In this document: positions 2,630 to 64,000 of the stretch, piece by piece | Position numbering within the stretch: position 1 is the first letter of the stretch | How the letters are laid out: each line of letters opens with the position of its first letter | Source: Psammoneis japonica | Lineage: Eukaryota | Reading direction: 5' to 3' | Length of the DNA: 64,000 nt | Assembly: GCA_008632985.1 (NCBI GenBank) | Contig: QPGO01000107.1 | Location: forward strand, 1 to 64,000 | The notes under the pieces: model-generated | Told to the model about the DNA's origin: nothing | What the model saw: only the letters and a program-made list of their open reading frames with translations | The model's database searches: none | Translations under genes and position numbers: made by a program

Positions 2630-3402
2630 GCACATGCGACCACGCGTGCAAGTCCCGCGCAATTGGTCTTCGGACGCGATGCGGTTTTGTCTGTTGCCCA
2701 TCGCGCTGAGTGGAAGCACACAGAAACCAGAAAGCAGAAGCTTGTCCACTTAAACAACAAGCGTGAAAATCAGAAATGCAAGGAGCATCAACGTGCCGCA
2801 GGGCAATTGGTGCTTGTCAAACAGGAACAATCCTCTAAATGCGGTTCTGACAGCTGTGCAGGACCCGCCAGAGTTGTCTGTGTGTGTGACAACGGCACGT
2901 TGCGTGTCCAGAACGGAGCGCTGACAGATGCGCGTGATCTACGGCAGATTGTGCCCTGTCGCCAGCAAGACATCCTGTCACTTAACGGCCCTGATCATGG
3001 GGGAGTGTGCAGCATGCCTCGCTGCTGGACAACACGGCCAGACCGTGCATGAGCCTCTTGCACGTGGCAACGCAGCGTTGTCAACACGCACCTGGGAAGC
3101 ACGACCACAGGAGGGCGTGGCTCCAGGTCTTGGGCAATTCCAGAAGGATGCTAAGAGAGCGTCCGTGTGAAGCACACTGGCCCGTCGTCTGGCCCACGAT
3201 GGCAGCGTGATTCCACACGATGGCATCACTCGTGCATGGCGCGTGATGGCTTGATTCGCACGATCCATGGTGCGAACGCACGATCGATTTAATGCGATCC
3301 AAATGCGAACAAACAGGGATTTGGCAAGATTCCCCATTTGCATGATCCCATTTTCTCTGCTCTAAACTGGCTCATAATTTTCACAACGACAAAGTCGCAA
3401 CA
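2630..3402 (+). mobile_element. 3' fragment of a second Ty3/gypsy element (integrase C-terminus, PPT, 3' LTR), TpA-converted
   Basis: SPAQLVFGRD...NNKREN...GP..V..V.DNGTLR is a gypsy integrase tail. PPT GGGGGAGTG is followed by TGCAGCATG at 3008; probable LTR end ...GCAACA near 3402. Tyr replaced by Cys/His. Confidence 0.75.
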
Positions 3403-3413
3403 CATCTTCTTTT

Positions 3414-5633
3414 TCAGTGCCCAGCACATGCATGGGGCAAAAAGACATCGCAGATTCCCATCTTTTCACGAGCGACACTCAGGTCACACAGCAAAGACTC
3501 TGGGCCATTCTTTCCATGGTCTTCCAAATCAAAATCACCCTCCATCCGTTCCAAGAGTAAATCGCGCTCCTCCATTGGGACCTTCATTTCCTCCATTTGC
3601 TTCGCCGCTCCCAACTTGGCTGCCGGATGGACAAGATTACGAAGGTCAGGGTGAGCATGGATCCCCATGCCACACAGCATCAACATCTGCACAGAGTTCA
3701 TCAATCTGAACTCTCCACAATCAGCGCCTGTGTGATCCCATGTTTGGACCATGGTTTTGAACATGTCCTCGATCGCCTTGTGGTCAAATGTTGGCTTGCC
3801 AACATTGTCATTGATCCAGCCCATGATGACAGCCAGTCCACCAACAAGCAAGTCCATCAAACCGTCAAGTTTCGTCCCGCACTCTGCCACATGAACCTCC
3901 TCGAAATCGAGTCCCAGGCTCTGCATGCGTTGGTTGTTGCAATCCCCCACAATGCTGCCGAACAGCCTTGCAGCTTCTCTGAAGCAATGAAGGACACAAT
4001 CGCCAGCCACGAAAGGACGCTTCACAGCATCTGTGTTGCACAACAAGCAGCAAAAATGGGAAAATCCGGTTTGATGCCCAGCCACAATGGCGCAACAAAA
4101 GCAATCGTACACACCAACCTCATCGAGGTTGTCGATGATTGCCGAACAACTGCGCGATAAATTGGAGTCCTTCACGATGGCAAATGGAAGACGTTTCCTC
4201 GGCATGACAATGACGAGATGCTCAACTGTGTCAGACGGAAGATTTGGCTTGCCAATTTCCTCTTCCACCCACACAGAGTGAGGGTCAAGGAAAAAATCTT
4301 TGATGTTTCTGTGGGTCAGCTTGCCCGACGGAGGATGACAAGGGCCACGGTGTCTCATCATTTCTGCAGCATGTGACAGATCAAGTTTTGCAAAATGACC
4401 ACGCACACGCGATCGGAACTCGGCATGCCCATGTGCCGAACTGACACAGTTTCCAGCATTGCCTTTGGATGCAGTGATGACCTTCAACGACCAAGAGCGA
4501 CCAACAGCATCTTGCAGTGACAAGCAAAGAGCACCAGTCTTGGTGCACCCATCCATGTCACAATCCTCTTTGTCAATGTGCAGCTCGGTGTTCGAATCAA
4601 CGGATTTTTCGCCGGACGACGAGATGCACTTCACTTGAATTTCCACGCCTTCCCTTCTGGCGTGCTTGGCTCCTGCCATCTTGTGGAGCTCAGCCGCGAA
4701 AAGACCACCACGGTGCGGGTCATGGAAGGAACGCATTTCTTTCAAAGCAACAAGATTGATTTCATCCTCGCAGAGTTGCACGGCGCCCAAGATTGAGGCT
4801 GTCATCAGCTGCACATCCTTTGGAAGCTTCTCCCACTTGTCCCTGCCAAAGACAGCACCAGGCTTGTGAGCAGGTCCCACTTCAGCTGACTCACCATTTG
4901 CAACTTCGCAATTCTGGCCACAACAACCAAAACAGATCCGACAGCGCAACTTGCATTCTGGTCCATCCCTTTTTTTGTTTGGCTCGCCATGTTCCAACAC
5001 TGCACGGAGTGTCGACGACACACTGGCTCGCAGTCCAAAAAAGCATTTCTGACACATCTTGTCCATGTGTCACAAATGAGTGACCACATCGAAAAAATGA
5101 GAGGTTGACTGGGTCGGGCAAGTGATCGCAACCATCGATTCTTGTGTCGGATCATTGGGAGCTGTGCCGCTTTCAAATCCATGCATGAACTTGCGGAGGT
5201 GACTCACCAAGTGGAAATCGGAGATGCTGTGGAATGACTGGTGCTTGACACAGTTCACCTTGAAGGAACCGGAAATGGGGGTTTCCTCAAAGACAACAAG
5301 GTGAGAATGTTGTGACTTCACCTCACCCGGAATCGCAAACGGAGATGGTTCAGGAAACACTTTCACAAGCTCTTCTTTTGTGAAACTGTCTGGCAGAGGA
5401 GGAGGTGACTGACAAGTCACACTGAGGGTTGGCCACTTTGTTCGGGAACATTCAAATTGTTCCTCGAGAGTCGGCTCATCTTGGAGAATCAGCGATTCGT
5501 TCTGAGAAATGTCAGAAGGTTCGCCATCTTTGGGGTTTTTGAGGCTGGGGCTTGAGGAGCAAAGGGAGGCGGCCAAAGAGGTGGCAAGAAGAACAGAACA
5601 ATCAGAGACAAGAAGAGGAGCATGGACAATCAA
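3414..5633 (-). pseudogene. Long TpA-converted ORF of unknown function (probable transposon cargo), one internal TGA
   Basis: ORFs 5070..5633 and 3414..5066 are in frame and separated by one TGA. About 740 codons, almost no Tyr, excess Cys/His. No domain recognised. Confidence 0.45.
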
Positions 5634-5718
5634 TCAAACAACATGATGGATTCATGCCATTTGGATTTTTTCGTTTCCGAGCATTTTTCGCAACGGATGG
5701 AATTGCATTGCCTGTTTT

Positions 5719-5783
5719 GGTGTCACAAATGCGTGCGATCGTACGGTTTTGTTGGTCTGTCCATTGAACGATTTTCGATTTCG
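5719..5783 (+). repeat. 65-bp element, copy 1 (inverted copy at 8658-8722)
   Basis: GGTGTCACAAATGCGTGCGATCGTACGGTTTTGTTGGTC...GATTTTCGATTTCG matches the reverse complement of 8658-8722 at 63/65 positions. Confidence 0.9.
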
Positions 5784-5953
5784 CTGGCTTGCGTGGTCGA
5801 ACTTCAACTTGCACAGATGTCCTGTAGACTTGTGCGTGAAAACATGCCAAAATCAAATTTTCAAATTCGTGAGGGAAAAGAAGTGAAACCACTCTTTCTT
5901 CCCCTGCACCATCTCGTTGCTGCTCCTGCGGATTACGACAACAACGACGACAA

Positions 5954-6640
5954 TTGAAAATGTCGCTTGCATGTGTTGAATGTAATGAGGAGCAAGAGGA
6001 GGAGTGCATCGTCACTCTGTCTCCTTGTGGCTGCAAAATTTGTCTTCACTGCATGGTTCGTTTGCCAGCGGAAAAGACATCCCAGAGCCTGTTGCATTGT
6101 GATCAACGCGTTGCCAGCCACAAGACAGTTCGCACCATCCAAAAGAGAAATCGTGAGTCGGAAAAAAAGGAAGTCGAGTTTGAACACCCAGCTCCTGTCA
6201 AGAAAAAGAAAAAGAGGAACCCCACCAAGTCACAAATGTTGGAGTTCCTCCGGGAGAAACAAAACAACGGCACCGCATCAAGAACAATCGGAACGGATGG
6301 CCTGCCACTTACGGAGCAAGCGGCAGTTGAAACAGATGGGGATGGCAAAATGCTACACACCCCAGTTGGATTTGCAGCAGTCAATAGAAAAGGAGACATC
6401 GCTGCAAATGAAAATCAAACCAAACTTGCCATCGCGAAAATGTTCAAGAACATGTCGTCCGTGCTCTTGCCTGTGGCTACGACAGGAAACAGGGCTGAGC
6501 CGATGAGCTCAAAAAATGTGTTCAAACACCTCATGTCAGAAGAAAACAATGCGGCCATGCTTCCATCTATTTTTGCTTTCGCTGCCAATGGCACTGACAT
6601 GAACGCTTTCGTGGAGACGATGAAGAAGGGTGGGAGATGA
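5954..6640 (+). pseudogene. TpA-converted ORF with N-terminal RING-finger-like motif
   Basis: CVEC...CIVTLSPCGCKICLHC spacing resembles a RING finger, followed by a basic KKKKKR patch. Caution: Cys is inflated by Tyr-to-Cys conversion. Confidence 0.4.
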
Positions 6641-7349
6641 GGCGACTCATCGGCATTGGCTGTGGGAATGACAACGGATTTAATTGTGAGAGTTTCAAGT
6701 CAAAATGAGGTGAGTCCCGCAATCAAATGTGTGTCCAATGTTTTCATAACTCGAGAGATTCTGTCGTTGGAGACACTCTTGCCAATTTCAAAGTAACAAC
6801 ATCTGCATCAGCCACCGGCATTGCAAAAGCTTCTGAATGCACTGCAGCCTGCCTTGAACCCAAGGCAAAATTGGCGCCTAAAGATGGGGTTATGCTGACA
6901 GCCGACAACGCAGAATTGAAAATAACACATGCTAAAGATGCAGGAGGGTTTGATGGAATTCAAGGAAGATGATGTGTTTTGAGTGCTCCGGGGGGGAAGA
7001 CCTCAGTTGAGGAGCGTTCAGCTGAGCTAGATCGGTCATTCTATTTGACTGATGTCAACAATGTTGTGCTCACGGGTTGTGGAAAAGAACTGCAATAGAT
7101 GCACATTACAAGATCAGGTCACACCTCGACTTTTGTTGCCAGCAATGTTTGCGCCACTCACGGGAACAACAGAGTGGCCAATTGACAGATGTGGCAGCAT
7201 TGATGCAAAGCGCCAAAATGCACAAGCGCCAACGGTCTGGTCTCCACTTCTGCTTGGGCCTGCCGGAACTGGCGGTGGGCATTCGTCACACCGCAGATGT
7301 GGGTCGTTGCAAGGCACCAGAATTTCAATTGTTGAGTTGGTCATGCAAA

Positions 7350-8474
7350 TCAATGCAAATCACAACCATCATCATCACCACCAGATTCATCATCTTCAAA
7401 GATGGTGGCAGTGCCACTGCCGTCAGATGCTGGAGGGAGCACCCTTTTCTCCTGTAGCGACTTGCGACGGGAACGTTGCTCATCCAGGCAGAGGTTGGGG
7501 GTCCAATTCTTGGCATCCGACACGTAGCTGAGTTTGCAGTTCTGTGATTTTTCAAGGCTCTCAACAATCAAATCTGGAGCAAGATCATCCAAGCTTTGAA
7601 CTGAACCATTGTTTTTCAATGCCGCGACTGCCGGCCCAAACTGCGCAACCAAAGCATCGCGATCACGAGAGCGGAGACTAACTTTTGGGATGGAACGTTT
7701 GTTCAAGCGCGGCCTTCCAGACTTTTCAGGGGTGTGCACAGTTGAGCATGTCATCATGCACGGTTCACACCTGCCGTCAATCAATGATTCATTCTCGACA
7801 GTGACTTGAGAACAATCCATGGCGACCTTCAGGTGATGACAAGCCAAAGCCTCTGGGTGTCGTGCAGCTTGATCTCGAAGCTGCGCGTTGGATGTGGGCA
7901 TGTCAGAATGTTCAGAACGCTTTGCTGTTCCATGAAGCTTCTCATGCGATCTGGATTCTTCAACTTTCCTCTTTCGAAGGTCATCCGAGTCGAACATCCC
8001 AATGCACTTCGGAGCGGCTGGATCGCATTGACAGTTCAAGTCGGCAGATTTTGACGGAGTTACAAACTGCTTCCTCAACCTTTCCCAAGCTTCCTTTTGC
8101 TCTTCTTTCGACAGATTCAACCACCAATTTACTGCTGTCATTCGATGGCACAAGTCTGAGCTTGCCGGACCAAACAAAATGAGGCAAATCGGAAAAGCAC
8201 AATGCGTTTGTTGATCTTTCCGCTGCCTTCCGCTCTTTGGCACTTTGAAGCTCTCTTGCAAAAATTTCTGATTCTTCCACTCAGCAGCACTCCTGTCCTT
8301 TAGAGCGTCCGGCACATCAGCCTCCGTGTAAAATGTCTTGTGGTGTCGGGCGACCTTCAAATGTTTCGGTTCTGCCATGCTTGGCGGCAGCGCCACATTG
8401 CGCTCAAGCGGCTCTGGGTCTTCTTCCCCAAATGGCTCCCTTTCTTCTTCACACCCACTCACATTGATGACCAT
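7350..8474 (-). pseudogene. TpA-converted ORF of unknown function
   Basis: 374 codons with protein-like composition and an acidic tail; Tyr nearly absent. Confidence 0.35.
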
Positions 8475-8584
8475 TGCAATGAAAGAAGAGCTGCAATGCC
8501 AAGGACAGGCAGGAAAACTTCAGCGTGAGGCAGGAGCAGGGGTCGACAATGCCATGGAGCATTTCTCTGAGTGATTTGTTGGCA

Positions 8585-10010
8585 TCAATTTCTAGCATGC
8601 ATTGCGCAGAAGTGTGCGCAGACGCCACCACTTTCGCGGGAAAAAAAGTGCCAGAGCCGAAATCGAAAATCATTCAATGGACGGACCAACAAAACCGTAC
8701 GATCGCACGCATTTGTGACACCAGTTTCTTTCTTCTTGCACTGAGTGGCAAAGTCACGAAGCCTGGCTTTCCACATGGCCTCAAAATGACATCTTGCAGC
8801 CTTGCTTTTGCCGGAATTGTCAGCGGCAGAAACCACACGATCAATTTTCACACATCTTAAAAGAGTCTCATCGACATGTGTTGCGCGCATTTGTTCTCGC
8901 TCGACATCTAGCATCGACAGTCGCACAGGCTTTTCCCAAGAATTTTTGTGTTGGTGGAACAACAACTTTACAAATTCAGGGAAGGACACAGGGCATTCAT
9001 CTTTGGTCCTCTCACAGTGACCAAGAGCCAGGAAATTCTCCAAAAAGTTGGTGCGCAAGTCGATGTCTCTCGCCACATTTGCCGAACAGGGAGCACAGCC
9101 AATGGTCGCAATCACCATTCCTTTCAGGTGCGTGCGGCAGAATCTTGTCATGAAGAATCAAAAAACCAATGTGAAGGTGTTGCGCGCAACGCAAAACCTT
9201 CCCTTCAAAACTTCTCAGCTCAGTGTGCTTGACAAGTGGCTCTCCCTTTGGGTCGCACAATCCGGGATCATGGAGAAGCTTGCACAACATGGAAATCTTT
9301 GCCATCATGTTGGTTGTGGTGTCTGTTGATTTTGCCTTGTTGCCAATGACTTTCATGTCCTCCACTTTGGGAGCACGGCGGCACTCCAACGCATGAGGAT
9401 GTTTGGCGCCTTGGCTGGAACAACTCCATCCTTTTGCGGAAAGAAAGTGCAGCAAGCTCTTGCACCCAAGTTCCTTTGCAACAATGCGGTTCACAGCCAT
9501 CAGCTCTACAAAAAAATGAGGTCTGCCCTTTGACTTTTGCCACACATGGGCAAGCGCGATCCAATTCGGAGAGGGATCACAAGTGGAATCGTGGTGGAAC
9601 TGAACCTTGGATTTCACCGTCTTGATTGTCGCTTTGACACGGCTCCGCTCGTTGCCATCGATCACTCCAAAACCATTGGCAAAGAGAGATTCAAATGCGG
9701 CCTCCTCGAGGCAGGAATCATTGTTGTCTTGTAACAGAGAGGCAACCGACAAGTCATGCGGCGCCATGGTTGCTGTTCCAACACCAAAAAATCTGGTTTC
9801 TGCAGAAACACACCAGAGTGGTGCATGGGAGAAGTTGCATGCGCGCCTGGCAGGATTTGGAGTTTTAAACACAAAAACCTGCCAGACGCGCGTGCAACTT
9901 CTCCCAGGGAAATCCCACGTGAGATTGTGCCGGGAAAGGGCAGTGCAGAGTGTGGAATTGATGGAAGAAAATGTTGTGTGAAACAGCATCAGGAGAAAGC
10001 GTGCATGCAC
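8585..10010 (-). pseudogene. TpA-converted ORF(s) of unknown function, probably frameshifted
   Basis: Overlapping ORFs 9012..10010 and 8585..9151; Tyr-poor; no domain recognised. Confidence 0.3.
8658..8722 (-). repeat. 65-bp element, copy 2 (inverted relative to 5719-5783)
   Basis: Reverse complement matches 5719-5783 except for two CpG/TpG differences. Confidence 0.9.
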
Positions 10011-10849
10011 TGGAAAACAACATGGACTTCTACATGCGCGTCAAGGCACGTGAAGAACACATGGGTGCCTTCAAGTGACGCACACGAACAATCACAAAGA
10101 AACACTCGGAAATGGAGACAGCACAGAGAGAAGTCAGAAACATGGATCCAAAACAAAGTGACACACAACAGAAAAAAAAAACAACTGCAACAAGAGACGA
10201 TGAAGGCGACGGCGACGGGATCGATGAAAAAGAAGGATTCGGATGGAAAGATGCCGGAGACGGTGAAAACAGGCGGTGCCAAGACAAAGAAGGAAGAGAA
10301 AAATGGGGCGGGCAAAATGAAGAAAGAGAAAAAGAAGCCGACAACACGATGTCAAGAGGGGAGCAGCGATGCGATTCTGCATTTCGAGGGACCTCTTCCT
10401 CTCGATGATGTTCACCCAAATGCAAGAAATGCAGTGTGGCTTTTTTGGAATGGTGACGAGGAAACATCCAACGTGGCAGCAGCACATTTGAAATTCTTGC
10501 AAGAGAGCGGACAAGACATGTGGAATGAAGAGGACGATGCAGACGACTGGGCAAATTGGAGCACAGTTGTTGATTAAATGATTGGTGCACACTTTGCATG
10601 ATGAAAATTTCATTGCATGCAATTGCAATGTTTGGCTTGTCATTAAAGATCGTTGGTTGTTGTGAAAAAGGCAGAGCACAAAAATTAAAAAACATCTGTG
10701 TTCAAACATGAAGAATGGCAGGAGATTGATGATTGACCAAATGACAAAAACCGTTGTGTGTGGATGAGCAAATTTTATAATGTGGCAATGTAATTTTGTC
10801 ATGTGTGCAGACATTGCGACATCGTGCACTCTGATGTCAGTTTCTGCCT

Positions 10850-11290
10850 TGTCACAAAGTTGCCAATCTCCATTCTTGTCCAGCGGGCACTTGCTGGAGA
10901 AGACCTGAGACCAGTGTGACTTGGGAGGAACATCAAGATTTGAGAGATCTGCAAAAAGAAGACAATCAAACAAGTCCTGCAGCTGAAGAAAAAAGTCACA
11001 CACAGGGATTCCAGGAGACAGCTCTTGTGGTTTGTCATTTTCAAATTGGCAAGCAATGGACAAAGACTCAAGGGGTCTTGCTTTGGCACCACCCAGAGTG
11101 ACAATGCTGGGAAACATTGACCCAGCTTTGAAATGAAAGTGTGAGAAGAGGGGTTTGTTGGTTGGCAACCCACCACATGAGAGCTCCTCTTGCACAGCTC
11201 TGAGAAATTCATTGATCGCACTGATTGGGACACCCTGGGAGCAACAGCACAGATTCAATGTGCAGACCACAGAGATGGTTTTGCTGTTGT
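10850..11290 (-). pseudogene. Possible Plavaka/CMC-like transposase fragment
   Basis: GVPISAINEFL...PVCDFFLQLQDLFD..LFADLSNL..P...W...NGDW loosely resembles the N-terminal part of such transposases. Weak, by eye only. Confidence 0.25.
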
Positions 11291-13459
11291 GAACTTCAGG
11301 GATGATGAGATCCTCATCAGTGGAAAGGGGCTTGACTCAATCCAGTGCAGCAAAAGAACCTGGGTCAACAACAGTGGCAACCCCCTTGGCAACAAAAGGA
11401 GACACACCATCATCAAATGATTTGGAAACAAATTCTTCATTGTCCAAGTGCTGGCATTCTGAAACATCATTGGTGCCTGGCCAAACGGCAGTGCCATGAG
11501 AAGGATGTGACTCTTGCACTTGCATGACAGCACAGTTGGATCTCAATGCCCAGGGATTGTGCTGCAAGTGAACTTGTGGAGCGGATGAAGTGTCAGTCAG
11601 AGTGAGACAAACCAACCCCTGTTGCAACCATTTCAATGGGAGGGGGGACAAAGGTGGAAGAAGAGGCAATGGCATCACTGGGTTCTTGGGATTCTCCCAT
11701 TGGCAGCTCTTTGCTGTGAGCATCTGTCAATTTGTTTCCTGAAACACCGCAGCTGTGTTGAGAAAAGGAGAGTTTGCAGGGCAAATGAGTTCTGAGGGGA
11801 TGTTGAAGACCAGTTGGAAGAAAACATTTGCCACACATGGGACAATCATTTCCTGCAGCAAAGGAAGGCACCATTGTCCATGTCACAAACAGAGGGAGGT
11901 GGAGATGCATGAGAAGCAAAAATCAACAATGCAAGCCATGCGGTGAAAGCAACACATGGCAGGTGACAAGATTGTTCTGGGCAAGTCAACTTGCGAGTCA
12001 AAGTGCAAGATCATGCAATGAATTGATGCACAAGAGTGGCTGTCTTCACGCCAGTCTGCTGGGCTTGCATCAAGCAAAATGACAATTTAAGATGAATCCA
12101 ACTGACCACAATGACGGATGTTTTGTCATGCTGGCGCACATCTCAGACTTGTGTGCAACCAGATGTGGACCCATTTCTTGAGCACCCAATTTTCTGTGTG
12201 GTGCTGGGTCTGTCTCTGGCACCCCCAGCCCAAGTGGCTGCAGTGGTTTCCATTGGCCCACGCATCCTGTTGACAATGGAGCCAAACTTCCTGCCAAAAT
12301 TCATTTCAGCACCCTCCTTTTTGTTTCTTTTGACAGTTTTTGGTGGCTTGAGATTGCCAAATTTGATGACACAGCTCATCTGCATTTTCCTGCTGCTGCC
12401 TTTCTTGTTTTTGCACCTGGTTTTGATGCCAGCTGCTGGCTTTCCTCTTCATTTTTTTTTAAAGTTGCTCCTCTTCCTGGGTTTTGCTGGTCGTTTTCTT
12501 GCTCAGTTCTTTGCCTCTCTTGCACTCTTGCTTTCCATGGCTGTGTGGATTTGGCAGTGCAATCATCCTGGCTGCTGTTCTCATGCTTGTCCTTTTTTCT
12601 TGTGGGATCAACTTGCAGCAGAATGGGTTTCATGTTGACATCTTTGGCATCACATTGGTGTCTTTGGCATGTCAGCACCCTTGACAGAGGAGTTGTCAAC
12701 AAAGAATTTGTTGACAAGAGCTTGACTTGAAATCATGTTTTTTTGTTTGCATTTTTTGGGAAGTTGGTTTCATCTTGTGTGGCAGCCTTCTTGCAAGGTG
12801 AGCTGGTGCTGCCATCAGAGGTCACAATGGTGAAAACCTTGCAGTTTTCCCACACAGGAATGAACTGGATTGTCATGGTCAAACCATGCCCAAAAGACAG
12901 GTTCAAGAAGGCAAGGCACTCTGTGCTTCGCGGCACTTGCCCCATTGCCAGTTCCATCCTGGATGACCCCTGAAACAAGCTTCTGTTGCACTTGACTGAG
13001 CACTGGAGGTGTGGGTCAGATGGCACCGGCCCAGCTGGCAAAGGAGTGACAGCACTTTAAAGTTGGATTTTTTTGTGTTGGAAAAGCCTCAGCCAAGCAG
13101 CAAAAGCCCAGTGGCATGACAGCTCAGCAGAACTTCCACAGTGCTTTGACATTTCTCACATTTGTGCCAAAACTTGGCTTCATGGTGGGCCTGCCTTCCT
13201 CAACTCAACCCTCCTCTCTGCTCACATGCTGGCTTGGTTCAACAGCATGGTGGAGCAGTCACCTTCATGTGTGCTTGAGATCTTCTTGGATGAGTTGAAG
13301 AGTGGGGGCATGAGCACTTGGTCAAAGCTCAAGCACTGGCAAGTGACAGCATGCAAAAGACCCTTTGGTCACTCACCTCCCACAAACCACAGCTGCTTCT
13401 GTGTCAGCGAGTTCTTGGGTGAGGACAAGATGATGCACTCCAGCCATGAGTGGGGCTGT

Positions 13460-13730
13460 GTGTGACATTGAGAGCCCACTGATTCTGTGCACAAGCTCCA
13501 CAGCAAAACAACCAAGCAATGAATGCGCGGGCAGTTGCCAACAGAAAAAGAGGCAATTTTGTGATCATGTCTCCCAACCCACACACTCAAAGTTTGTCAT
13601 TTCCTTCCACCAATGTTGAAGAACACACCTGGCCCAGTTTTGTTCTCACAAATGTGGAAAACAGAAAGCCTTTTTTGTCTTTGCAAAGCAGGGAGCACGA
13701 AACATTTTTGTGGAAAATCACATGTGAAAA
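13460..13730 (-). repeat. Decayed homologue of the segment at about 53050-53330
   Basis: Shared GCCAACAGAAAAAGAGGCAATTTTG (25 bp identical), TTGAAGAACACACC and ACAGAAAGCCTTT in the same order; shared peptide KIASFSVG. Confidence 0.75.
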
Positions 13731-14448
13731 TCATTCGCAACATGTGACGTGATCCAAAAAACTCTTTGTGCCACAGTGCAGTGGCACAAGGTTCTGCCTG
13801 GAGCTGGAATGCATCACAGATGGCACCTGCCATGAAGGGCAGTTGTGCAGTTGGACAAGAGTGCTTGGGGGAAATCTGCTCTTTCAAGACATCCATGGTT
13901 TCTTGGTTTGGCAAAAACTGCACACCCAAGCAAGTGGAGAAGACCAGCATTGTGCACCAAGCCACTCATTTGCAAGCAAAGGTGAGGTGATTCAAAGAAG
14001 TTGGCAGCACCTCCAGGCTGCAAAGAGAGTTGCTGTGTGAGAACAAAGAGTGCTCTCTGAGCAGAAAATGAAAACACAAAATCAGCCATTTTTCGTGCAT
14101 GTGAGAAAGTGACAGCACAACACATGTGAGGGCCTTGCTTGACATTGAAAAAGCTGGAGAGTGCAAATGCACAGTGATGTTTTGTTTGTCACCTTGATGG
14201 TGTGTGCCTCCTTTTTGTTGGTGATGTTCAGAGCACATGTCGTGCCACAAAGCTCCAGCTTGTCCAGGGGCCCTTCGCTGGATTTGGAGCCATGGGGTGT
14301 GGAGAGAGCAGCATTTCTTGCCAGCTGCAGCACCCCCTTGTTGCTCAGCTGTGCACACCAAAGTGCAGCATGGCTGTGAGTTGTGTGTGCTGTGTCGGGT
14401 GCTGGCTTTGCTGTTGCAGCTGTGCCACATTAAAAAAAGACGTCGATG

Positions 14449-14530
14449 GACGGCTGATGCTCAAACGCTGGAGCTTGCAAGCAGTGGTGTCGGGGACGGC
14501 TGACACTCAAACGCTGGAGCTTGCAAGCAG
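14449..14530. repeat. Short tandem duplication (about 46-bp period)
   Basis: GACGGCTGA(TG/CA)CTCAAACGCTGGAGCTTGCAAGCAG twice; the copies differ as TG versus CA at one site. Confidence 0.8.
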
Positions 14531-15230
14531 CGCCACACACGCAAGCAGCGCCACACACACAAGCAACAAGCACTGTGCTTGCAGCAGCAGAGAGCAACCA
14601 AGTTGTGCAGAGTCATGGCATCTGAGCAGCGCACTCAACGTGGCAGCCCCTTGTTCTTTTTTGCATCACCACTGCCAGCAACAAGAGCTTCCAAGTCTGG
14701 CAGGGAGGGGCCCATGATGATGCATTGTTTCTTGCGGTTTTGGTCACGTCGAGATGCAAGAAGTCAGAACGCGAAATTTGCCCATTGTCAAGAATGCTCA
14801 ACGCCACGCGAAGGGAACCAAGCCGATCGATCCGAAAAACTGAACATTGTTGCGTTCGGCATGCAGGATTGTCACTCCTGTTGTAAACTTTAACGGTTCT
14901 GTTATTTTTACAAGCATTAATGTCTGTATATTGTTGCCTTCGGTATGCAGGATTGTCACTCCACACCACATCACATGCCATGACACACGACTCAGAAACG
15001 CGCAGTATCGTAGAGCCCTCGTACCATACTGTAGTACGAGTATTTGCTGTAATACAGTAGTCCTCGTCGGTCGTCGTCGATGTTTTCTGCACAGAACACA
15101 AAAATACATTGTTGGGAAACGTGGATCTACAAGAAGGAACAAGTCGCAGAAAAAGATGAACACCGGTCTTCTTTTCCGACAACGCTTAAGGAGAAAAAGA
15201 CGTGGCTGCGTATCAACGGCGGCCTCCACC

Positions 15231-16114
15231 ATGATGTCATCATCATCGCTAGTAGCAGTTGAGCAGGGTAATGACAAGAAAACACAAGTCAATGAGAAAA
15301 GAACACAAGTCAACGATCGCATTGCACTGCGGATGGAACTGACGAACCAAAGCAGTCTCCTCGATAATGTCGTCGTCGCCTCCGGAAGTGACAATGATGA
15401 AAGCAATCATGCTCATGATCAGCACTACGGCGCTGCTGGAGACGACGACATGATAATCCAAGAACCACCACGAAGGCTCCGCAGTTCCACAGATGATGCT
15501 ACTAGGGAACGGACGTCTCATGTGATAGAAGTTCCAACTAACACGGGTCTTCAGATGAGAAAGACGATGATGCACAAAAGATGGCAGGGAATGATGATGC
15601 CTTCCGACATCATTGCCAATCTTCTTCTGCTTCCTGTTCTGACAAAAGAACGAAACTGAAAACAACCCAAAAACTTGCCGAAACAATGATTAGCCCCGAG
15701 GTTGAAGCTGCTGCTGCGGCTGCCACTATTGCATGGCCGAGGATACCGACACAGAAATCATGTCGTAGTAGGGGACGTATATGGGGAATACCTTACAACT
15801 CCGATGACGATGAAGACGCCTATACTTCTTCAGAAGACGAGGACCAGCAAGAGCAAGACGATGCACAAAAGAAGATGGCAGGGGATGATGATGCCCCCCG
15901 AATAAATCGTCGCCCTTCTTCTTGTCGTGCTGAGACAAGAGCGAAACTGAAAGCCCAACTTGCCGAAAAGGTCAGCCCAGAGTTCGCAGATGCCTTCATG
16001 TCAAGTCCGATGATACAAACACCGACACAAACATCATGTCGTAGTGGGGGGCGTATATGGGGAATACCATACAACTCTGATGACGACGATGAAGATGCTG
16101 ATTTCCCTTATTAG
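15231..16114 (+). CDS. Hypothetical low-complexity protein with an internal duplication (frameshifted or pseudogene)
   Basis: ORFs 14847..15659 and 15581..16114 overlap. Peptides SCRS.GRIWGIPYNSDDD and MAG.DDA each occur twice (about 280-bp period). TpA content normal. Confidence 0.4.
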
Positions 16115-17039
16115 TCTCTAGCTGGACACTATCACACCATACAAAGTTGGAGGAGAGGAGTCGCTCACAACAAAGTCACCACAATTTCAATGAGTAACAG
16201 CAAATTATTGTTTCACTATTTCTAGTCGTCGACGCTTCTTGTAGTAAATCGACAATGGCCACCACCACGACGGCAATCAAACTGCTCAATAGATAATGGT
16301 TGTCCAGACTTTCCAACTTTGTCGAGCTTCGGATCGGTGGGAACAGAAAAGATCACAATTCAGTGTCACTGTGGCACGCAAGAGTTTCGATGATGATTCT
16401 CCTGTATAATTCTTTCGTTTCTGAATGGCACCAATCTCGTAACATTCTTTTACATACTCTTCTATCTAAGACAGAAATGCCGGAATGAGGTCGATATCCG
16501 ACGAACTCTACGAATCAAGGACATGGTATCAGACATCGTCATACCTTTCTGTGATGGATGTTGCTATGATTGAAAAGGAAGGAAAACATGAGAGTCATTG
16601 AAAGGTTTATGACCATATCTTGCTTCCACCATCATTTGGGAAGCTTGTTTCATGTTAAAAACGTACCTTATGAGATAAAAGGCAACACATGTCACGGATC
16701 ACGATTGGCCTCGTTGACAATGCACGAGTACACTTCCATGGCAAAGACCCGTGGATATAAATCCAAGAGTGGAATTCGCATGATTTAACAGGTCGGACGT
16801 TGTTGCATCGTAGACGGGTATTCGCTTGTGAGCAGAGGTACGGGAAGACTCAAAGAAATTGGCAACACCCGACTACAGCATCAGCACCGCCCGTTTTGGT
16901 AAAGATCGCCATGGTGAAGAGAAGAAGAGGGGCCTGCATGATGATTGAGAGTAGTAAGACGTAAGACGATGCTTGATTGATCCGTCAACTTTAACCCTTC
17001 AACCACCGGACTTGAGCAAATCTCCACGGGTGGAGATTT

Positions 17040-27458: not shown

Positions 27459-28888
<1,430 letters not shown>

Positions 28889-28930
28889 TGAGATTGTTTA
28901 CGTGGATGTAGGTTCTATCTTGCTACCTAT

Positions 28931-31979: not shown

Positions 31980-33386
<1,407 letters not shown>

Positions 33387-48756: not shown

Positions 48757-49702
48757 GGCAGACAAAAGTGGTGTCAGGATGATCAATTCTGGTTGGGAAG
48801 CGAAGGTGGACTCGAAACTTGGGTGAGAACAGACTTGACTTGAAACAGACTTGACTTGAAATCTTGAACTGTCTTAAAATCAGAAGTCGCCGGGCTTTGT
48901 CATCCCGTTCGTTGTCAAGTGCTAAACTTCCCATCCGGTCCGTAGAGTTGTGCCGGCACGTCCGAACCCGCAGCCAGTGGCGCTTTGGGTTGCTTGCGAG
49001 CGGAGCAGCGGGTTGCAAACCCCTGCAGGTGAGCTGACCAGAGGTGGACAAGACCCCCGAACCGTTCTTATTTTTTACATCGGTTGGATTTCCCGATCAG
49101 GCTGGCCAGTTGATGCAGGCGTCAGGCGCTGTGGACGAACGAACAAACGCGGGAAAGCACCCTCGCCCCAACGTGGGGCTGCAATCACGGCTGCTTGCTC
49201 TCACAGTCGTCCTCGTGGACCTGGTGGAACTGTGGAGCACCAGCAGTCCAGGGTAGATCAGGTGCAATGGACTCGGTGTGCTTGTAGAGTGGCAGCAAAA
49301 CCGCAGTCCGAAGAGTGGGTGCAGGTTCTTGGCCGTGAAGACATGTGTGTATGTGCACACATGTCTTCAGCGACGAAGATCCTTGAACATGTAGGGTTCT
49401 TGACCGTTAACCGATGAACAGGTATGTCAAGGGATGAGGATCAAGGACAGACTTGGATGTGACCGTTGAATGTATGTCTTCAGCGATCAAAGGCAGCACA
49501 ATCAATCCAGACATCCAGCGGTGAGGAGACTTGACGGTGACGTCAACTTCCTGCCGATGCCCTGGCATTGAATGCGCGCAGACTTGCCGATGTATGTAGA
49601 GTGTATACGGAGGTCCACGTAGAATTGAAATAGCGTCGTTGGTAAATCAACGACGACGATGGCGGTTGCTCAATGGGTTGACAATGAGCAAGACTGTCAA
49701 TC

Positions 49703-49980
49703 TGACAGAAAAATTGAAGGCAAATGGCAAGAATTCAAACAATGACTCCTTGCTGCTGTCTAAATGGCAGATGAGTCTCCGCTCAGAGACCGTTGCAGGA
49801 GCCGAAAGACGTGTAAGTCGGTATAATCGGGCTGCTGTTATTGTTCTTGTGAGCCTTGTGGCTCGAAAGCAAACTACATCGCGCGTGAACGCGCGGAACT
49901 AAAGCACACAAAACTGTGCACGGTAAACTAAACAGCGCGCGATGCTTCGCGCGCACCTAAATCCTGTTCAAATCCTGTCA
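49703..49980 (-). repeat. Copia 5' LTR (278 bp)
   Basis: Direct repeat of 42863-43139. Confidence 0.95.
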
Positions 49981-57975: not shown

Positions 57976-58159
57976 CGTCGACGAAACTGAGTGGGATGTC
58001 GTGCGTCTGGTGCAAAGAAGGACGTGGGAGGAACGCACACGTCACTCTTCCGTCAAGGTGAAAGAGGCACACTTTCGTCTCACTTTTTTGTGACAGAACC
58101 TTTGCGCAAGAAAAACGAAAAGCATCCAACTGCGGTGATTGGGCCACACTGATCACAGT

Positions 58160-58810: not shown

Positions 58811-58895
58811 TCACGGTGATCGCACTGAAAAAACAACTGTTTTTGCTGAGTGACTTCTTGAAATTTGTTGAGTCAAAGTGCCAGCTTAAATTAAA

Positions 58896-61800
58896 ATGGA
58901 CGAGGCCAACTCCCGTGTTTGTGGTGCAATCAATGGAAAGTTTGAGATGCTTTGTCTGCATGGAGATGGAGAATTTAGACCACACGTGTGTTCAGTCTGT
59001 GACGTTCTGCTGAAACCTAGAGAAGTTTGCTGCTTGCCGCTCGAAACATTGGAATCAGCAAGAAACTCACTCACCCCTTCAGACTGGAACAGCGCATCTG
59101 ATCGTCTCAAGTCCTGCCACACTGTAGAGCATGAAGATGCTGATTGGATCAAAGACCTGCTGCTTTCTCCCCGTGCCCAACACGTGGCACAGGAAGACAG
59201 ACGACGCGTCGACGGATTCACTTGCTGCAGCGAATGCCGAAGAAGCCTGGGAAGAGCCGTTGTGCCAATGCACGCGACAGCAAACAACTGCTGTTTCGGT
59301 GCCCCGCCGCACGAACTGTTGTCTCCAACCAAAGTAGAATTGGCAATGCTCACACCAGTGAAAACATGTGGATGCTGCTTCAGTTGCCTTGGTGGCAAAC
59401 AGAAGAAGCTTCAGGGAAGTCTGATGTGCTACAAAGTCAAGATGCAACGCATCGTAAGAACTGTTGTGCACTTCGACGTGCTGAATTTACATCAGAGTGT
59501 GATTGCACTGATGACTGGAAAGATGACTCCGGAGCAAAGACAACTTGTGCGTTCAAAGAACAGAATTAGGATGCACTGCATGCCAAGGGCAATGGAATGG
59601 CTGTTGCACCACAACCAAGAGTGGGTGTGCCAACAGATGAATCTAGATGAAGTCAGGCGCAATCTGCGGAATCCCGCACTTGTTGACAGCACCAGCGAAG
59701 AAGAAGGAGAAAATGCGAACATTGAGACCTCAGAGTCATTTCATGTTTGCTTTCCTGATGGAACCATGTCTCCTGCGACCGGTGGTCAGCGCAACCTGGG
59801 CTGCTTCAAAGATCTTGTGCATGAAGCTGCTGCCAACGGATTTGATTTAGAGGTGCAAGCGCAGTTGTCCAAAGAATCTGCGAGTGATTTCAAAGGCAAC
59901 AACTTCATTGGCGCGTGTCTGCTGCAGTTTCCTTTTGGCAGAGGAGGAATCAATGAGACGAGAATGAAGAAAGACGGAAGTCTCACAGATGGCACCAACC
60001 TTGCACACCATGCCGACCACTTGGCATGGATTTCCCAGCCTCACTTCCATGAGCAGCTCTTCGTGTTAATGTGCTGCAACTTGACAATGAAGCAAAGGAT
60101 GCTGCAGAGCGCAGGGTGGAAAGTCAGGGACAAGAATCAGGCTGCACAGTTTGCAAACGAACTGACAGTGGACGATGTGGACAGAGCTGTTTGTGATCAC
60201 AACTTGGGCGAGAGAAGAGATTGTGGACTCGGGCACCACTTTTTGCGTGCACTCGACGTTGCATCTGCGTCTCTGCCACACAGCAACGAAGCAGCAAAGA
60301 AAATGAGGAGAAACGCCAAAACTTGTCAGCATCATTTTGGCCAGGGTGGCATTTTCTTAACCGTCAGTCCGGACGATGCAAATTCGTTTCTTGTGCAACT
60401 GCACTCGGGTGTCATCCTGGACCCAAACGAAGACGTGACACAACTGACGGACGAAATTCTTGCTGGCAGGGCTGAGCAACGCAATGAACTGCGTCTGAAG
60501 TTTCCCGGTCTGACAGCCTTTGCATTCGAGTGCTTGTTTGACATTGCAACAGAAGAGGCAGTGGGTTGGGATCTGAGTGCTGACCAACCAAGAGAAAACT
60601 TTAACTTCTACATTGGCAGGCCAGCCGCATTTTTAGCCACAGTCAAGGAGCAGGGACGTCCAACAGCACACGGACACATGCAGATCTGGTTCGCATCGAT
60701 CAACAATGCAAGAGAGAAACTGCATTTGCCAACAAGACAGATCCGACGTGAAGGTGCTGAGTGCCTTGCCAACATGGTTCAGAAGATCTGCAGCACGGAG
60801 CTAATCTGCAGTGAGGACTTCAGCACCAACGCGTTGCGTGAAGCATTCGATCATGACTGCACAGTGCCAAAAATGTGTCGCACCTCTCCAAAAGCAGCAG
60901 ACGACCAACAGCTGAGAAGCCTGAGGCACAAAGACGGCCAGCAGTCGAAGAACGGAATGTTTGCTTGTTGTCGTCACTGCACCAAGTGCTGGACAAACGT
61001 CGAGTTTGTAGAAAGCTTTTTACAGTCACGGCACCGTGCACCTGGCCTGACTCACTGTCCAGACAACCATGCAAAGCAACTAAAAGCAATGTGTGTACAG
61101 TGCCAGCGAAGTGGTCCGCAAGGGACAACAGAGGCACACACACCGGACGCAGCTTACAACCATCACATGCACGTTACGAAGTCATGTTTTCCCAAATGCG
61201 CAGAGTCACGTAAAATGCGTAAAAAAACCCCACACGAGGAACTGGACACGCAGTCAAGGAAAAGGAAACGAGAGGAGCTCAAACCAGGTGACTGCCGTCA
61301 CAGGCAACCAGCTGCTTCGTGTCCAAATGATTTGGCAAGGAACGCAGATGACACTCAGATAAAGTGGTTCAGCTGGGATGGAACTTTTGCGCATCGGTGC
61401 ATGAAGGAAGTTGTTCCGAAGAGGAGAAAGTGCAATGCTTTTCAAAACGTGTCGTGCCCTGCAACAAGCAGATCAAAACTGACATGCAACACAAACATTG
61501 CTTCATTGATGCCTGGACCGTCCACTCAATGCACGATTGAGTGCATCCTAAAAGATGCCCAGAAAGATGACACTGCATCGTACGACGAAGTGCTTCGAAC
61601 TACGAACAGGACAGCGACGGAATTACAGAAACACGCATCTGATGCATCGGAAGCAATCAGACGTCTCACATGGGGTGCTCACTCGCACAACAAGACGAGC
61701 GTCATTGGACCACCACTTGCGTCTTACACAAGAAGGAACGGAAGCCGTTTCATCGAATCTCATTTGACCGCATGGGGCCCCTTGAAAGACATTGTCAGCA

Positions 61801-64000
61801 CACTAGAAAGAGATGAAGTGTCTGCGACTGCAGCCCATTTTGGCGATGCACCGTTCTTCCAATGCCAGGCCTTGCACTGCCCATGTCGTCCAACAGCACT
61901 GGAGAATCTCAGTCCGTTTGCGTTTTTTAGTGAGTGCGAAGTTCTTTGCAACACAAGGAAAAATGAACACGGCATGATGATGTTCGACAACAGAGCGCAC
62001 GGGCACCCATCTCACAATTCAATGAAGAATGAGTTTCTTCAAGGTGTCAGACAGCGACAGCAACCGCGATTGTTGAAAGCACTTCAGTGTGATTTTCCTG
62101 ATGCAGCCAAGTTTGGCAGTTGCCTTGCAGATCTGCAGCAACCAACAACACCAGACAAAGAATTGCACTGCAAGTTGGCATTGGCCTTGTTTGCGCCTTG
62201 CAGAACAATGATGGAACTCAAACCAACAACCCATGCACACCTGCGTGAATTCCAACTCTCCGCAGCAGCCGGTGTTGTTGCAGAGGAAAACTTGAACTTC
62301 TTGCAGAACCTGCAGGATGCTAAGTCCAACTGCCTTCATCTCAAAAGCACATCTGACGATCTGCAAAGAAAGACGGAGCAATTTAGACCTGCTGACGTTG
62401 CGTTTGACTGTCACAAAAGTGACAAGGAAGAAGGTCTTTCAGGTGCCGTTCAGGGTCAACCACTGGATGCACTCTTGGAAGAAATGGCAGAGCAGCCAGA
62501 AGACGATGACATTGGGTTGAGCGACCAAGCAGTTGTTCCTGCACATTTGAGCGGCAAACGTGCAAGACAGAAAGGTTCACACATGGGTGGCTGCAAATGC
62601 TTGGCAGACATGCACACTGACCCACCAAACGAGGAAAGCCAGGTCAATGAACGACAACTTTTTGAGAATCTAGAGGGCGGCGATGACACCGATGAGGAAG
62701 ACCAGAATGAAGGAGTGCAACAACACATCCACAGCAGACCTCTGTCAAGAGACGACATTGTTCAAGCGATGCTGACTAGAACGCAAAGAACAAGAAGGTC
62801 GTTTGAGGACATGACAGGTTTGGAAGAACACGTCGATGTACGTCAAGCAAACGGATCTGCAGCAAGTGTCGTAGACTGGGCTGGGAAAGCAAGACTGGAC
62901 AGGCAACAGCAGCGTGCCTTTGAAATTCTAGCAGGAACCTTTGTGCTCACTTGCTGCCAAGACGCTCTTCAAGACGAGATGTCACGCAATGGACTCAACA
63001 GGAGAAACAGCAGACACAAATTCGCAACAAACCTTCGCCGATTGAAGAAACTCGTGGAAGTGCAAAGACGCAGAACGTTGCAACTTGTGTGTTTTTTACA
63101 TGGTGCAGGTGGAAGTGGCAAATCAACCACAGTGGACCTCGTCGTGGAATGCGGAAGAGAGCATTGCTCGCTTGTTGAGCAGCCGTTCACAACAAGCACA
63201 ATCAGAGTGACTGCACTGACCGGAGTGGCTGCGACTGTTCTCAAAGGGGGCACAATCCACCGAGTTGCACACCTTGTGAGAAGAAAGCAAATGGCCGAAG
63301 AGCAAATTGAAGCATGGTCAGACACGAGACTTTTGGTGGCAGATGAGATTTCTTTTGCAAGCAAGAGAGAACTGGAAAAACTCCATGAGAATTCAACAGC
63401 ATTGAAGAGCGAACCAAGCAAGCCGTGCGGTGGCATCAACATTGTTTTCGCAGGTGACCTCAGGCAACTAGAACCAGTCGGAAAAGGAGTGAAACCACTG
63501 TGCAAAGATGCATGTCCCGAGTTTCACGAGTGGATCAACTGCTGCACAGAACTTCGTGGTGCGCGCAGGTTCAAAGACGATCCATCATGGGGAAAACTGC
63601 TCAAGAGATTCCGCACTGGTGAGATTGCAGTTGACGATGTAGAGCACATCAACGAACGAGCAGTTCAGAACGAAGATGATCTGCCCAGTGACCTCCGCCA
63701 TGCCACGTGCGCAAATAAGGACAGAGATGCAATCAACACTGGCCTGTTCGAAAAAAGAGCAGAAACACTGCATGGAAGAGATGGAGACGTCCTTGACTCA
63801 ATGTTGATTTTCAGTGACGACTTGCAGGTGCAGAATGGCACGAGACTCTGCCAACCATTTCTGGTTTGCAACAGCTTCTGGAACAACTGTGGTGAAGGAG
63901 ACGTTGTCATGCAATCAGGAAGAATGGATCCAGTCTTGTGAATTTGCAGAAGATGCAGAGTCATGACACCTTTCAACGAAAATGCAGCAAACGGTCAAGC
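58896..64000 (+). mobile_element. Helitron Rep/helicase (HUH endonuclease plus PIF1 helicase), TpA-converted, runs off the window
   Basis: FPFGRGG, FLTVSPDD, EQGR..AHGHMQIW (HUH), CNTNI...CTIECILK (YxxxY position), GAGGSGKS, DEIS, GGINIVFAGDLRQLEPV, RFKDD. The TGA at 63939-63941 is probably secondary. 5 Tyr in 1681 aa. Confidence 0.9.

Follow-up and report, generated by a model that had tools for sequence, protein, structure and literature searches.

Probable targeted TpA hypermutation of transposon bodies in the nucleus of the diatom Psammoneis japonica

Blocks of DNA that hold almost no TpA dinucleotides lie beside ordinary host genes in a 64-kb stretch of Psammoneis japonica (QPGO01000107.1; hereafter the window), and they raise the question of what emptied them of TpA and where that process acts. 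An earlier sequence-only reading of the same DNA had ascribed the blocks to a chromosomal mutator that converts TpA to TpG or CpA in repeats. To address this question, we calculated dinucleotide observed/expected ratios (O/E) across the window per kb, in 100-bp bins, and as block totals, and we compared mutated sequences with intact relatives. Based on these comparisons, it is probable that the nucleus of this diatom subjects the bodies of transposable elements (TEs) to a targeted TpA>TpG/CpA hypermutation, by adenine deamination, and that the process is the same as that reported for Bigelowiella natans.

The per-kb TpA O/E is 0.00–0.26 at 3–15, 18–24, and 42–64 kb, with a single exception at 49–50 kb (0.46), and 0.45–0.92 at 0–3, 15–18, and 24–41 kb. 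Within the TpA-depleted parts, the O/E values of TG and CA both reach 1.2–2.0. Four depleted blocks, 40.6 kb in total, contain 263 TpA (O/E 0.111), and the gene-bearing, normal parts, 23 kb in total, contain 1055 (O/E 0.626), which bears out the earlier description of TpA-poor, TG/CA-rich blocks next to a normal host-gene island. The blocks are as follows.

2630–14800: depleted block 1, TpA 58 vs 788 expected, O/E 0.074
17450–19600: depleted block 2a, TpA 13 vs 128 expected
19800–23700: depleted block 2b, TpA 14 vs 249 expected, O/E 0.056; right insertion end, host-gene duplicate, and other repeats
41600–64000, up to the window end: depleted block 3, TpA 178 vs 1212 expected, O/E 0.147

The sequence-only reading had drawn 17.4–23.7 kb as one block; this region is indeed depleted, but a TpA-normal stretch at 19.6–19.8 kb interrupts it. 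From normal to depleted parts, TpA density falls from 41–76 to 3.6–7.9 per kb, and the density of TG plus CA rises from 134–149 to 173–214 per kb. The TpA deficit of about 35–70 per kb matches most of the gain in TG plus CA; lost TA steps thus reappear as TG and CA, and CpG loss supplies the smaller remainder of the gain. The G+C fraction is 0.49–0.53 in the depleted blocks vs 0.38–0.47 in the normal parts. As had been noticed earlier, both products occur on the same strand, and their numbers on the plus strand are balanced (for example, TG:CA of 2040:2085 in block 3). Moreover, in the 100-bp profiles the borders are sharp, with the transition completed within 100 bp at most, at about 14.8, 17.45, 19.6–19.8, 23.7, and 41.6 kb. 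The boundary of the mutation process coincides with gene borders at 41552–41600, 14800–14850, and 23700–23815. These block ends lie approximately 50–100 bp from the first codons of an M3 peptidase gene, the open reading frame (ORF) at 14844–15659, and a kinase gene, respectively.

The direction of the change is given most directly by a host gene that is present in the window twice, once intact and once within block 2b.

25444–26787, minus strand: intact UAA-transporter gene, used as the unmutated reference; 370-aa ORF, Pfam UAA E = 1e-46, normal TpA
20178–21933, minus strand: mutated UAA-transporter duplicate, 87% identical to 25444–26732; Pfam UAA E = 5.5e-11 on 20428–20895 (minus strand)

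In the alignment of the two paralogs, the 43 TpA of the intact copy correspond in the duplicate to 2 retained TpA, 21 CA, 18 TG, 2 GA, and no CG. Each TpA site carries one change and never both. With 41 of 43 TpA lost and the other 15 dinucleotides kept at 0.60–0.95, the polarized substitutions are enriched at TpA, as the proposed mutator predicts. There are 128 mismatches among 1170 aligned bases, and these comprise 39 cases of TpA decay, 15 of CpG decay, and 74 others. We also consulted Logan contigs, which are assembled from the exact 31-mers in raw reads, for two runs from one sample (X1 and X2); the differences between copies in X1 amount to 392 transitions vs 78 transversions.

A second test is internal to a single retrotransposon in block 3, whose two long terminal repeats (LTRs) can be compared with each other.

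42863–49980, minus strand: copia-type LTR retrotransposon with RVT_2 domain and a 278-bp LTR pair, 96.4% identical
42863–43139, minus strand: 3' LTR (L1), which lost 6 TpA and 1 CpG relative to L2
49703–49980, minus strand: 5' LTR (L2), TpA kept; an unmutated island between saturated DNA
43087–44634, minus strand: copia reverse transcriptase (RT)/RNase H ORF, RVT_2

L1 and L2 differ at 9 positions. At six of them, L2 has TA and L1 has CA (five) or TG (one); one further position is a CpG change, and one difference is an adjacent CA/TG double. No substitutions beyond TpA and CpG decay were seen in the 278-bp LTR pair. The 3' LTR has lost 6–7 of 11 TpA, and 4 TpA are kept in both LTRs, three of them as CTAA. 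The two 100-bp bins covering most of L2 hold 9 TpA vs 0–2 in the neighboring depleted bins. The LTRs of one element start out identical, and the present differences therefore arose after integration. That 7–8 of 22 TpA copies were hit and no other non-CpG base changed in 2 × 278 bp would imply an excess at TpA of at least tens-fold.

A third test is offered by a DNA transposon that is polymorphic in the sequenced sample.

16995–20174, plus strand: composite terminal inverted repeat (TIR) transposon, 3.18 kb, with piggyBac-type CCC...GGG ends; present in the window haplotype, absent from the second allele
16995–17007 and 20162–20174: outer 13-nt TIRs
17043–17070 and 19735–19762: inner 28-nt TIR pair; the inner element carries the DUF7869 ORF
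16991–16994: left target-site duplication, TTAA, read directly
20175–20178: right target-site duplication, TTGA, read directly
17420–19601, plus strand: DUF7869 ORF of the inner element, Pfam DUF7869 E = 6e-20; TpA-depleted at about 17450–19600
16995–17450: upstream non-coding part of the insertion; TpA dense, 3–12 per 100 bp, many in the context RTAY (R, purine; Y, pyrimidine); spared
19600–19800: downstream non-coding part of the inner element, 8 TpA in 200 bp; spared

The outer element carries repeated palindromes of a 14-nt motif of the GAGCAAATCTCCAC type. In both X1 and X2, a contig joint 16993>20178 skips 3184 bp, and TTAA is what the empty allele shows across the joint. Both copies of a target-site duplication are the same at the outset; TTGA therefore represents one TpA>TpG change after insertion. 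The signs of recency are limited to this TTGA target-site duplication and to the polymorphism of the insertion.

The coding regions of the mobile elements provide a fourth line of evidence, because TpA loss leaves its imprint on tyrosine (Tyr) codons. The third element examined in this way lies at the end of block 3.

58890–63941, plus strand: Helitron Rep/helicase ORF, dead copy; Pfam Helitron_like_N, PIF1, and DUF6570

Within the ORFs of the TE blocks, Tyr accounts for 0.3% of residues, Cys for 4.3%, and His for 4.6%, vs 2.4%, 2.3%, and 2.2% in the host ORFs. For copia, we compared the ORF with 120 relatives at 55–70% identity (median about 65%) and considered the columns conserved in at least 80% of them. 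Conserved Tyr was kept in 1 of 15 columns (Cys 9, His 4, Phe 1) vs 253 of 271 for the other residues (p = 3e-14), and the RT box YVDD is changed to CVDD. For Helitron, we took the 25 columns in which both of the two closest relatives carry Tyr; the window retains Tyr in 3 of them and shows Cys in 12 and His in 5. Both Tyr of the relatives' YxxKYxxK motif, which we take to be the catalytic Tyr pair of the Rep nuclease, read Cys in the window. For DUF7869, the alignment contained 30 of 150 listed relatives, the longest among the first 55. None of the 7 conserved Tyr columns retained Tyr (His 4, Cys 3), and most other conserved residue types were kept at 80–100%, with Val (7/11), Ile (1/2), and Met (0/1) as exceptions.

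These replacements do not reflect a native scarcity of Tyr in the families. The median Tyr content of the relatives is 4.7% for copia (120 proteins) and 3.8% for DUF7869 (150 listed proteins), and the four Helitron relatives contain 2.6–3.5%; the possibility that TE relatives are themselves free of TpA or Tyr is thereby contradicted. The copia, Helitron, and DUF7869 elements were thus formerly normal, recently functional genes that have been damaged almost only at TpA, with catalytic tyrosines lost. The ORFs in the depleted blocks remain open for 515–1683 codons. However, TA>TG/CA changes cannot yield an in-frame stop, since TAA and TAG contain TpA and TGA arises only from TAA; long ORFs are thus uninformative on function here. 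Collectively, the paralog, the LTR pair, the target-site duplication, and the protein outgroups all agree with the mutator that had been proposed, namely one that is chromosomal, TpA-specific, of A:T>G:C direction, and aimed at mobile DNA.

Comparable damage is present in other assemblies. Among the 120 copia relatives from the protein collection, three show Cys or His at 11, 7, and 6 of 19 conserved Tyr columns, and one of the 150 listed DUF7869 relatives in public protein sets is nearly Tyr-free with Tyr>Cys/His replacements. In a set of 80 copia-related loci from public metagenomic contigs, four are damaged, with TpA O/E of 0.02, 0.13, 0.33, and 0.33. These four carry Cys or His at 12, 13, 5, and 10 of 17 Tyr columns, in differing patterns, and 11 other checked loci carry them at 0–1. 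A direct comparison of metagenomic locus L038 with L077, to which it is 78% identical, shows that 77 TpA became 15 TpA, 30 CA, and 19 TG. Four near-Tyr-free, Cys/His-rich predicted proteins (P0207, P0134, P0194, and P0316) derive from TpA-mutated dead transposons. Gene callers predict such Tyr-free "proteins" from dead elements, which constitutes a systematic annotation trap.

Two further observations concern the metagenomic loci. The 2766-bp contig of L014 has a TpA O/E of 0.02 and, besides Cys and His, has Phe in 4 of its 17 conserved Tyr columns; it might represent a lineage that replaces Tyr conservatively and is becoming immune to the mutator. L030, L033, L040, L043, L054, L073, and others have a CpG O/E of 0.04–0.25 and high TG/CA with normal TpA. 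Their composition reflects ordinary 5-methylcytosine (5mC) decay without the TpA process, so that the two are separable across hosts.

The same separation is visible within the window. Across the blocks, the CpG O/E is 0.56–0.79 vs 0.06–0.15 for TpA. The CpG O/E drops to 0.11–0.3 at 11–14, 22–23, and 42–43 kb (0.11–0.13 at 11–14 kb and approximately 0.19 at 41.6–42.86 kb), and both dinucleotides are lost only at 11–14.8, 22–23, and 41.6–42.9 kb. Blocks with a CpG O/E of 0.8–1.1 are already at a TpA O/E of 0.1–0.2. These values show a TpA process that is faster than CpG decay and separable from it.

We next consider the site rules. When the depleted parts are compared with the normal parts, TpA survivors are rare in some four-base contexts (ATAT 0/99, ATAC 1/88, CTAT 2/69, GTAT 6/85) and frequent in others (TTAA 37/50, CTAG 24/36, CTAA 26/44). 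In this unpolarized comparison, RTAY sites survive in 20 of 358 cases vs 112 of 174 for YTAR (p = 3e-28). The polarized sites of the window agree: none of 16 RTAY, 1 of 25 mixed, and 5 of 10 YTAR sites were kept (p = 6e-4). In L038, 3 of 30 RTAY sites were kept vs 12 of 29 mixed sites. Four-base context thus matters, with RTAY converted fastest and YTAR slowest.

For the choice of strand, we found no rule of this kind. No non-random order of TG and CA was found in runs across whole blocks (z 0.6–0.9) or in the paralog, where a hand count gave 17 runs vs about 20.4 expected. The base at −2 does not predict which strand is changed (21 vs 22), and the 3' neighbor of the changed A (C 13, T 12, G 10, A 3) reveals no preference for G or for a 3'-C. 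The Cys and His products number 38:34. Collectively, these counts indicate that either strand is hit equally, with one hit per TpA site. Separately, the first six polarized products to the right of the TIR insertion are all CA; this pattern was noted post hoc (p of about 0.03) and is a hint only.

Which sequences are targeted is indicated by those that escape, and one of these is a small repeat in the gene island.

27022–27234: high-copy miniature inverted-repeat transposable element (MITE), 213 bp with inverted ends, 8 TpA, O/E 0.51

The summed contig depth of the MITE is about 4100 vs about 50, or about 80-fold, and a contig joint 27022>27234 suggests an empty MITE allele. Since a MITE of about 80-fold depth is spared and the intact UAA-transporter paralog is untouched, targeting does not follow copy number. 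The earlier proposal of a targeting of repeats as in repeat-induced point mutation (RIP) therefore finds no support here. Within elements, the bodies are depleted, and the non-coding ends of the TIR element and the copia 5' LTR are spared. The depletion of the TIR element corresponds to the ORF span, beginning just past the ATG and ending at the stop codon, with which an AATAAA overlaps. From this distribution, we lean toward a recruitment that would depend on transcription, or on nascent RNA, at the site itself; promoters would then escape, and so would the U3 of the 5' LTR, which is not transcribed.

Host DNA next to the insertion gives a further indication. The insertion-free allele and the window show 13 differences in the 276 bp to the right of the insertion vs 7 in the 2453 bp to its left. 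Nine of the 13 right-flank differences are listed; in six of these, the empty allele has T(A) and the window has C(A), and in two, the empty allele has CpG. This is suggestive of host sequence that adjoins an insertion being caught in the mutation. As a side observation, the insertion-free allele joins 14541–16993 and 20178–20453 on one X2 contig that shows a minus-strand intron at 16564–16666, and the TIR insertion may have split a transcribed region.

These observations can be combined in a mechanism. As the comparisons show, one of the two A:T pairs in a TpA step is converted to G:C, giving TpG or CpA but never both at one site. The targets are TE bodies together with sequence caught up with them, and the process acts on the chromosome after insertion. 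The lesion would be an enzymatic deamination of adenine to hypoxanthine in 5'-TA-3', with the DNA read as a duplex tetranucleotide. Silenced elements would be targeted along their transcribed body, by way of nascent transcripts, small RNA, or chromatin, and not according to copy number. As an outcome, frames stay open and Tyr codons are turned into Cys and His codons, and the elements' inactivation would serve genome defense, a role that we infer for the TpA hypermutation. A broader extension is tentative and in our judgment more doubtful than the mechanism itself: a natural enzyme common to the stramenopiles, alveolates, and Rhizaria (SAR), or to diatoms, that would perform duplex A:T>G:C editing at RTAY-type TpA with co-transcriptional recruitment to silenced transposon and virus bodies, as an ancient arm of defense opposite in direction to RIP.

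Several points weigh against this account. The unpolarized context test substitutes the gene-bearing parts for the ancestral TE context, and in L038 all five YTAR sites were converted. In the right flank of the TIR insertion, comparison with the paralog makes the window state the derived one at only two of the six C(A)/T(A) differences; three have C in the paralog, like the window, and one is without an outgroup. The spared ends could partly reflect selection in copies that were mobilized in trans after their ORFs had been mutated, and they would then be no evidence of targeting. Furthermore, X1 was made from the sample that probably also yielded the assembly, with the platform not recorded, and does not amount to independent support. 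Finally, sequence alone cannot separate an adenine from a thymine lesion, and adenine is our best guess.

A thymine lesion is the strongest of the rival explanations, although we consider it unlikely. Here, a TET/JBP-type oxygenase would produce 5-hydroxymethyluracil (5hmU) or 5-formyluracil at TpA in silenced DNA, which would mispair with G and lead to T>C. Because TpA is palindromic, the products and the strand symmetry fit this lesion as well as they fit adenine, and recognition of a duplex tetranucleotide without a strand-specific flank effect is seen more typically in enzymes reading double-stranded DNA than in deaminases of single strands. In dinoflagellates, 5hmU is enriched at TpA and TpC, and 5-formyluracil does mispair with G; however, we know of no report of 5hmU in diatoms, which counts against the thymine route. 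The authors of the B. natans study also favor adenine deamination, itself a proposal (bioRxiv 10.64898/2026.01.13.699255). Far less probable is an RNA route, in which ADAR-like hyper-editing of TE double-stranded RNA at UA would be followed by reverse transcription into DNA. The preference of ADAR for a 5' U, as given in the Discussion of the preprint (bioRxiv 10.64898/2026.01.13.699255), and the coincidence of the DUF7869-element depletion with the ORF and probable transcript are in its favor. Nevertheless, DNA transposons (Helitron and TIR), the host-gene duplicate with its non-coding sequence, and a target-site duplication are also affected; both strands are hit equally, and the 3' neighbor shows no G preference, unlike the order G > C, A > U expected for ADAR. 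The LTRs of one insertion differ, which places the changes after integration. Together with the DNA transposons and the target-site duplication, this excludes the RNA route as the general cause. ADAR is, moreover, a metazoan family.

A sequencing or assembly artefact, in which a modified base at TpA is miscalled as G for A or C for T, would be a more trivial cause, and modified bases do produce systematic nanopore miscalls; with runs from one sample and no recorded platform, the idea has some footing. We nevertheless give it very little credence. The Logan contigs, built from raw 31-mers, carry the letters of the window. The paralog sites read TG or CA, never CG, and only 2 of 43 still read TA, a pattern that mixed miscalls specific to one or the other strand would not produce. 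Four metagenomic loci and three or four database proteins carry the same damage, and the changes in B. natans were called from Illumina reads (bioRxiv 10.64898/2026.01.13.699255). Equally improbable is a native composition maintained by selection, by which the elements would avoid TpA on account of a UpA-cutting RNase or a TA-cutting nuclease and would be functional as they are. The open frames of 515–1683 codons could be read in this way, and Phe at 4 of 17 Tyr columns in L014 could be a conservative replacement. However, open frames are expected in any case from changes that make no stop, and Tyr has given way to Cys and His, which the mutation yields directly, and not to Phe. The tyrosines of YxxKYxxK and YVDD are lost, relatives have normal Tyr content, and the effect extends equally to non-coding DNA, a pseudogene, and one LTR of the pair. 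We therefore retain targeted TpA hypermutation by adenine deamination as the preferred explanation.

The sequence-only reading knew of no described pathway for such a signature. This no longer holds, since the same signature was reported in April 2026 in B. natans (Mettrop et al., bioRxiv 10.64898/2026.01.13.699255), where integrated DNA of nucleocytoplasmic large DNA viruses (NCLDV) as well as virophages undergoes TpA hypermutation. Its mutation-accumulation lines gained 302 new single-nucleotide mutations, of which 231 were located in two integrated viral regions; within these regions, every mutation was at TpA, and all except one were A>G or T>C (bioRxiv 10.64898/2026.01.13.699255). The rate was approximately 6e-7 per site per generation, about 1000-fold over background, in some lines only, and 324 TpA-poor coding sequences of B. 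natans were enriched in RT and DDE domains (bioRxiv 10.64898/2026.01.13.699255). The likeness to the present case consists of A:T>G:C changes only, at TpA only, with TpG and CpA products, in foreign DNA only, and with a sharp regional contrast. At the sequence level, the window shows three of the features described there, namely A>G/T>C changes, their location at TpA with both products, and their confinement to mobile DNA.

The two cases also differ. The host there is a chlorarachniophyte (Rhizaria), whereas here it is a diatom (Stramenopila); the targets there are viral insertions, whereas here they are three transposon classes and a gene duplicate. The NCLDV region of B. natans has a Rho of 0.45, compared with a near-saturated O/E of 0.06–0.15 here. 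The tetranucleotide context, the strand symmetry at the level of sites, the spared ends, 5' LTR, and MITE, and the loss of catalytic Tyr go beyond the B. natans account in the portions of the preprint considered, and its Methods and supplements may contain data that overlap with the context result. Full-text searches found no diatom report of TpA hypermutation, and the B. natans preprint was the sole direct precedent among their results; another paper among them, PMC11884799, proved unrelated. In our assessment, the finding in the diatom is real and represents a second, distant, and ecologically important lineage with a process of the kind first described in 2026.

Other known systems resemble the pattern in part. 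RIP, known from Neurospora and other fungi, likewise produces dense transitions at one dinucleotide that inactivate chromosomal mobile DNA, with some leakage into adjacent sequence. However, it runs from CpA to TpA, raises AT, and creates stops, whereas the changes here run from TpA to CpA or TpG, raise GC, and create none; RIP also hits all duplicated copies, whereas the intact paralog and the high-copy MITE are untouched here. The decay of CpG through 5mC also ends in TpG and CpA and is seen in sub-blocks of the window as a second, separate process, but it cannot remove TpA. ADAR and AID/APOBEC share enzymatic deamination against repeats or invaders and a preferred 5' neighbor (U/T for ADAR). 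Yet ADAR acts on RNA, and AID/APOBEC act on single-strand cytosine, usually in strand-coordinated clusters, whereas the changes here are chromosomal, at A:T, strand-symmetric, and, at saturation, unclustered. The earlier judgment that RIP, 5mC decay of CpG, and ADAR do not explain the signature is thus supported, by the direction of change, by the separability from CpG decay, and by the affected DNA transposons and LTR differences, respectively.

As for the enzyme, TadA/ADAT2 naturally act on A34, which comes after the invariant U33 and thus lies in 5'-UA-3', a setting that would give a TA preference. In contrast to TadA/ADAT2, no 3'-C preference is seen here, and a duplex-like RTAY/YTAR effect is not a known property of TadA. 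To our knowledge, a natural enzyme with A:T>G:C activity on DNA has yet to be characterized, and the adenine base editors used in laboratories were obtained by evolving them. The ADAT2 of amphioxus and of trypanosomes has been reported to touch DNA, in work cited in the preprint (bioRxiv 10.64898/2026.01.13.699255). The site rules, that is, RTAY over YTAR, equal strands, one hit per site, and bodies hit with ends spared, offer handles for finding the enzyme. Such an enzyme would interest genome engineers as well as researchers of genome defense and mutation spectra, and under the more doubtful extension given above, it would be the first natural base editor of adenine (or thymine) in DNA for which a duplex motif is defined. 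If confirmed genome-wide, TpA hypermutation would look like a widespread eukaryotic way of killing mobile DNA and not a curiosity of one species. Diatoms are major primary producers with TE-rich genomes.

The raw-read contigs agree with the window. X1 contigs carry the letters of the window beside those of the other allele (all-depth 87.8 vs 51 at 20224). X2 is RNA-like: it skips the GT..AG introns 24929–25018 and 25091–25185 and leaves most of the depleted blocks uncovered, and it was not used as evidence.

The element classes named by the sequence-only reading were recovered in part. Pfam matches and alignments support copia, Helitron, the DUF7869 ORF within a TIR element that has a TTAA target site, and the duplicated host gene, whereas the gypsy and Sola-like assignments were not confirmed. 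Block 1 (2630–14800) consists of multi-copy repeats, with a summed contig depth of 90–1305 vs about 51 for single-copy sequence, whose class Pfam did not assign; none of 38 overlapping ORFs tested there had a Pfam match. No Pfam match was obtained for the 1412-aa frame upstream of the copia RT either. Among 89 further ORFs of at least 110 aa in the depleted blocks, the UAA-transporter fragment was the sole Pfam match above the curated cut-off. Matches to DUF1922 (E = 0.0045) and an F-box beta-propeller (E = 0.0023) lie below the cut-offs and look like chance, and a weak RAG1-like Atlas lead at 3417–5069 on the minus strand (recognition 1768, 143 shared features) was not used.

The region that adjoins block 1 on its left, window positions 1–2600, has a G+C fraction of 0.38, a TpA O/E of 0.83, and short frames only. 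An RT_RNaseH match at 972–1289 scores 23.4 bits, under the cut-off of 24.8. This region is possibly an old retroelement remnant without TpA mutation.

The host-gene island contains genes for a kinase, the UAA transporter, ALAD, spermidine synthase, a PhyH-type dioxygenase, a methyltransferase, a DDX49/Dbp8-type helicase, and an M3 peptidase. Among the best 120 matches of the DEAD-box helicase, all 11 that name an organism are from diatoms, with a best identity of 74%; the diatoms among the matches are Asterionellopsis, Epithemia, Cylindrotheca, Nitzschia, Pseudo-nitzschia, Chaetoceros, Mayamaea, and a Bacillariaceae sp. The host genes thus assign the window to a diatom, one without proteins in the collection searched, and not to B. 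natans. The island also includes a single N at 27712 and, at 28930–29379, a 226-bp unit in tandem duplicate with 98% identity.

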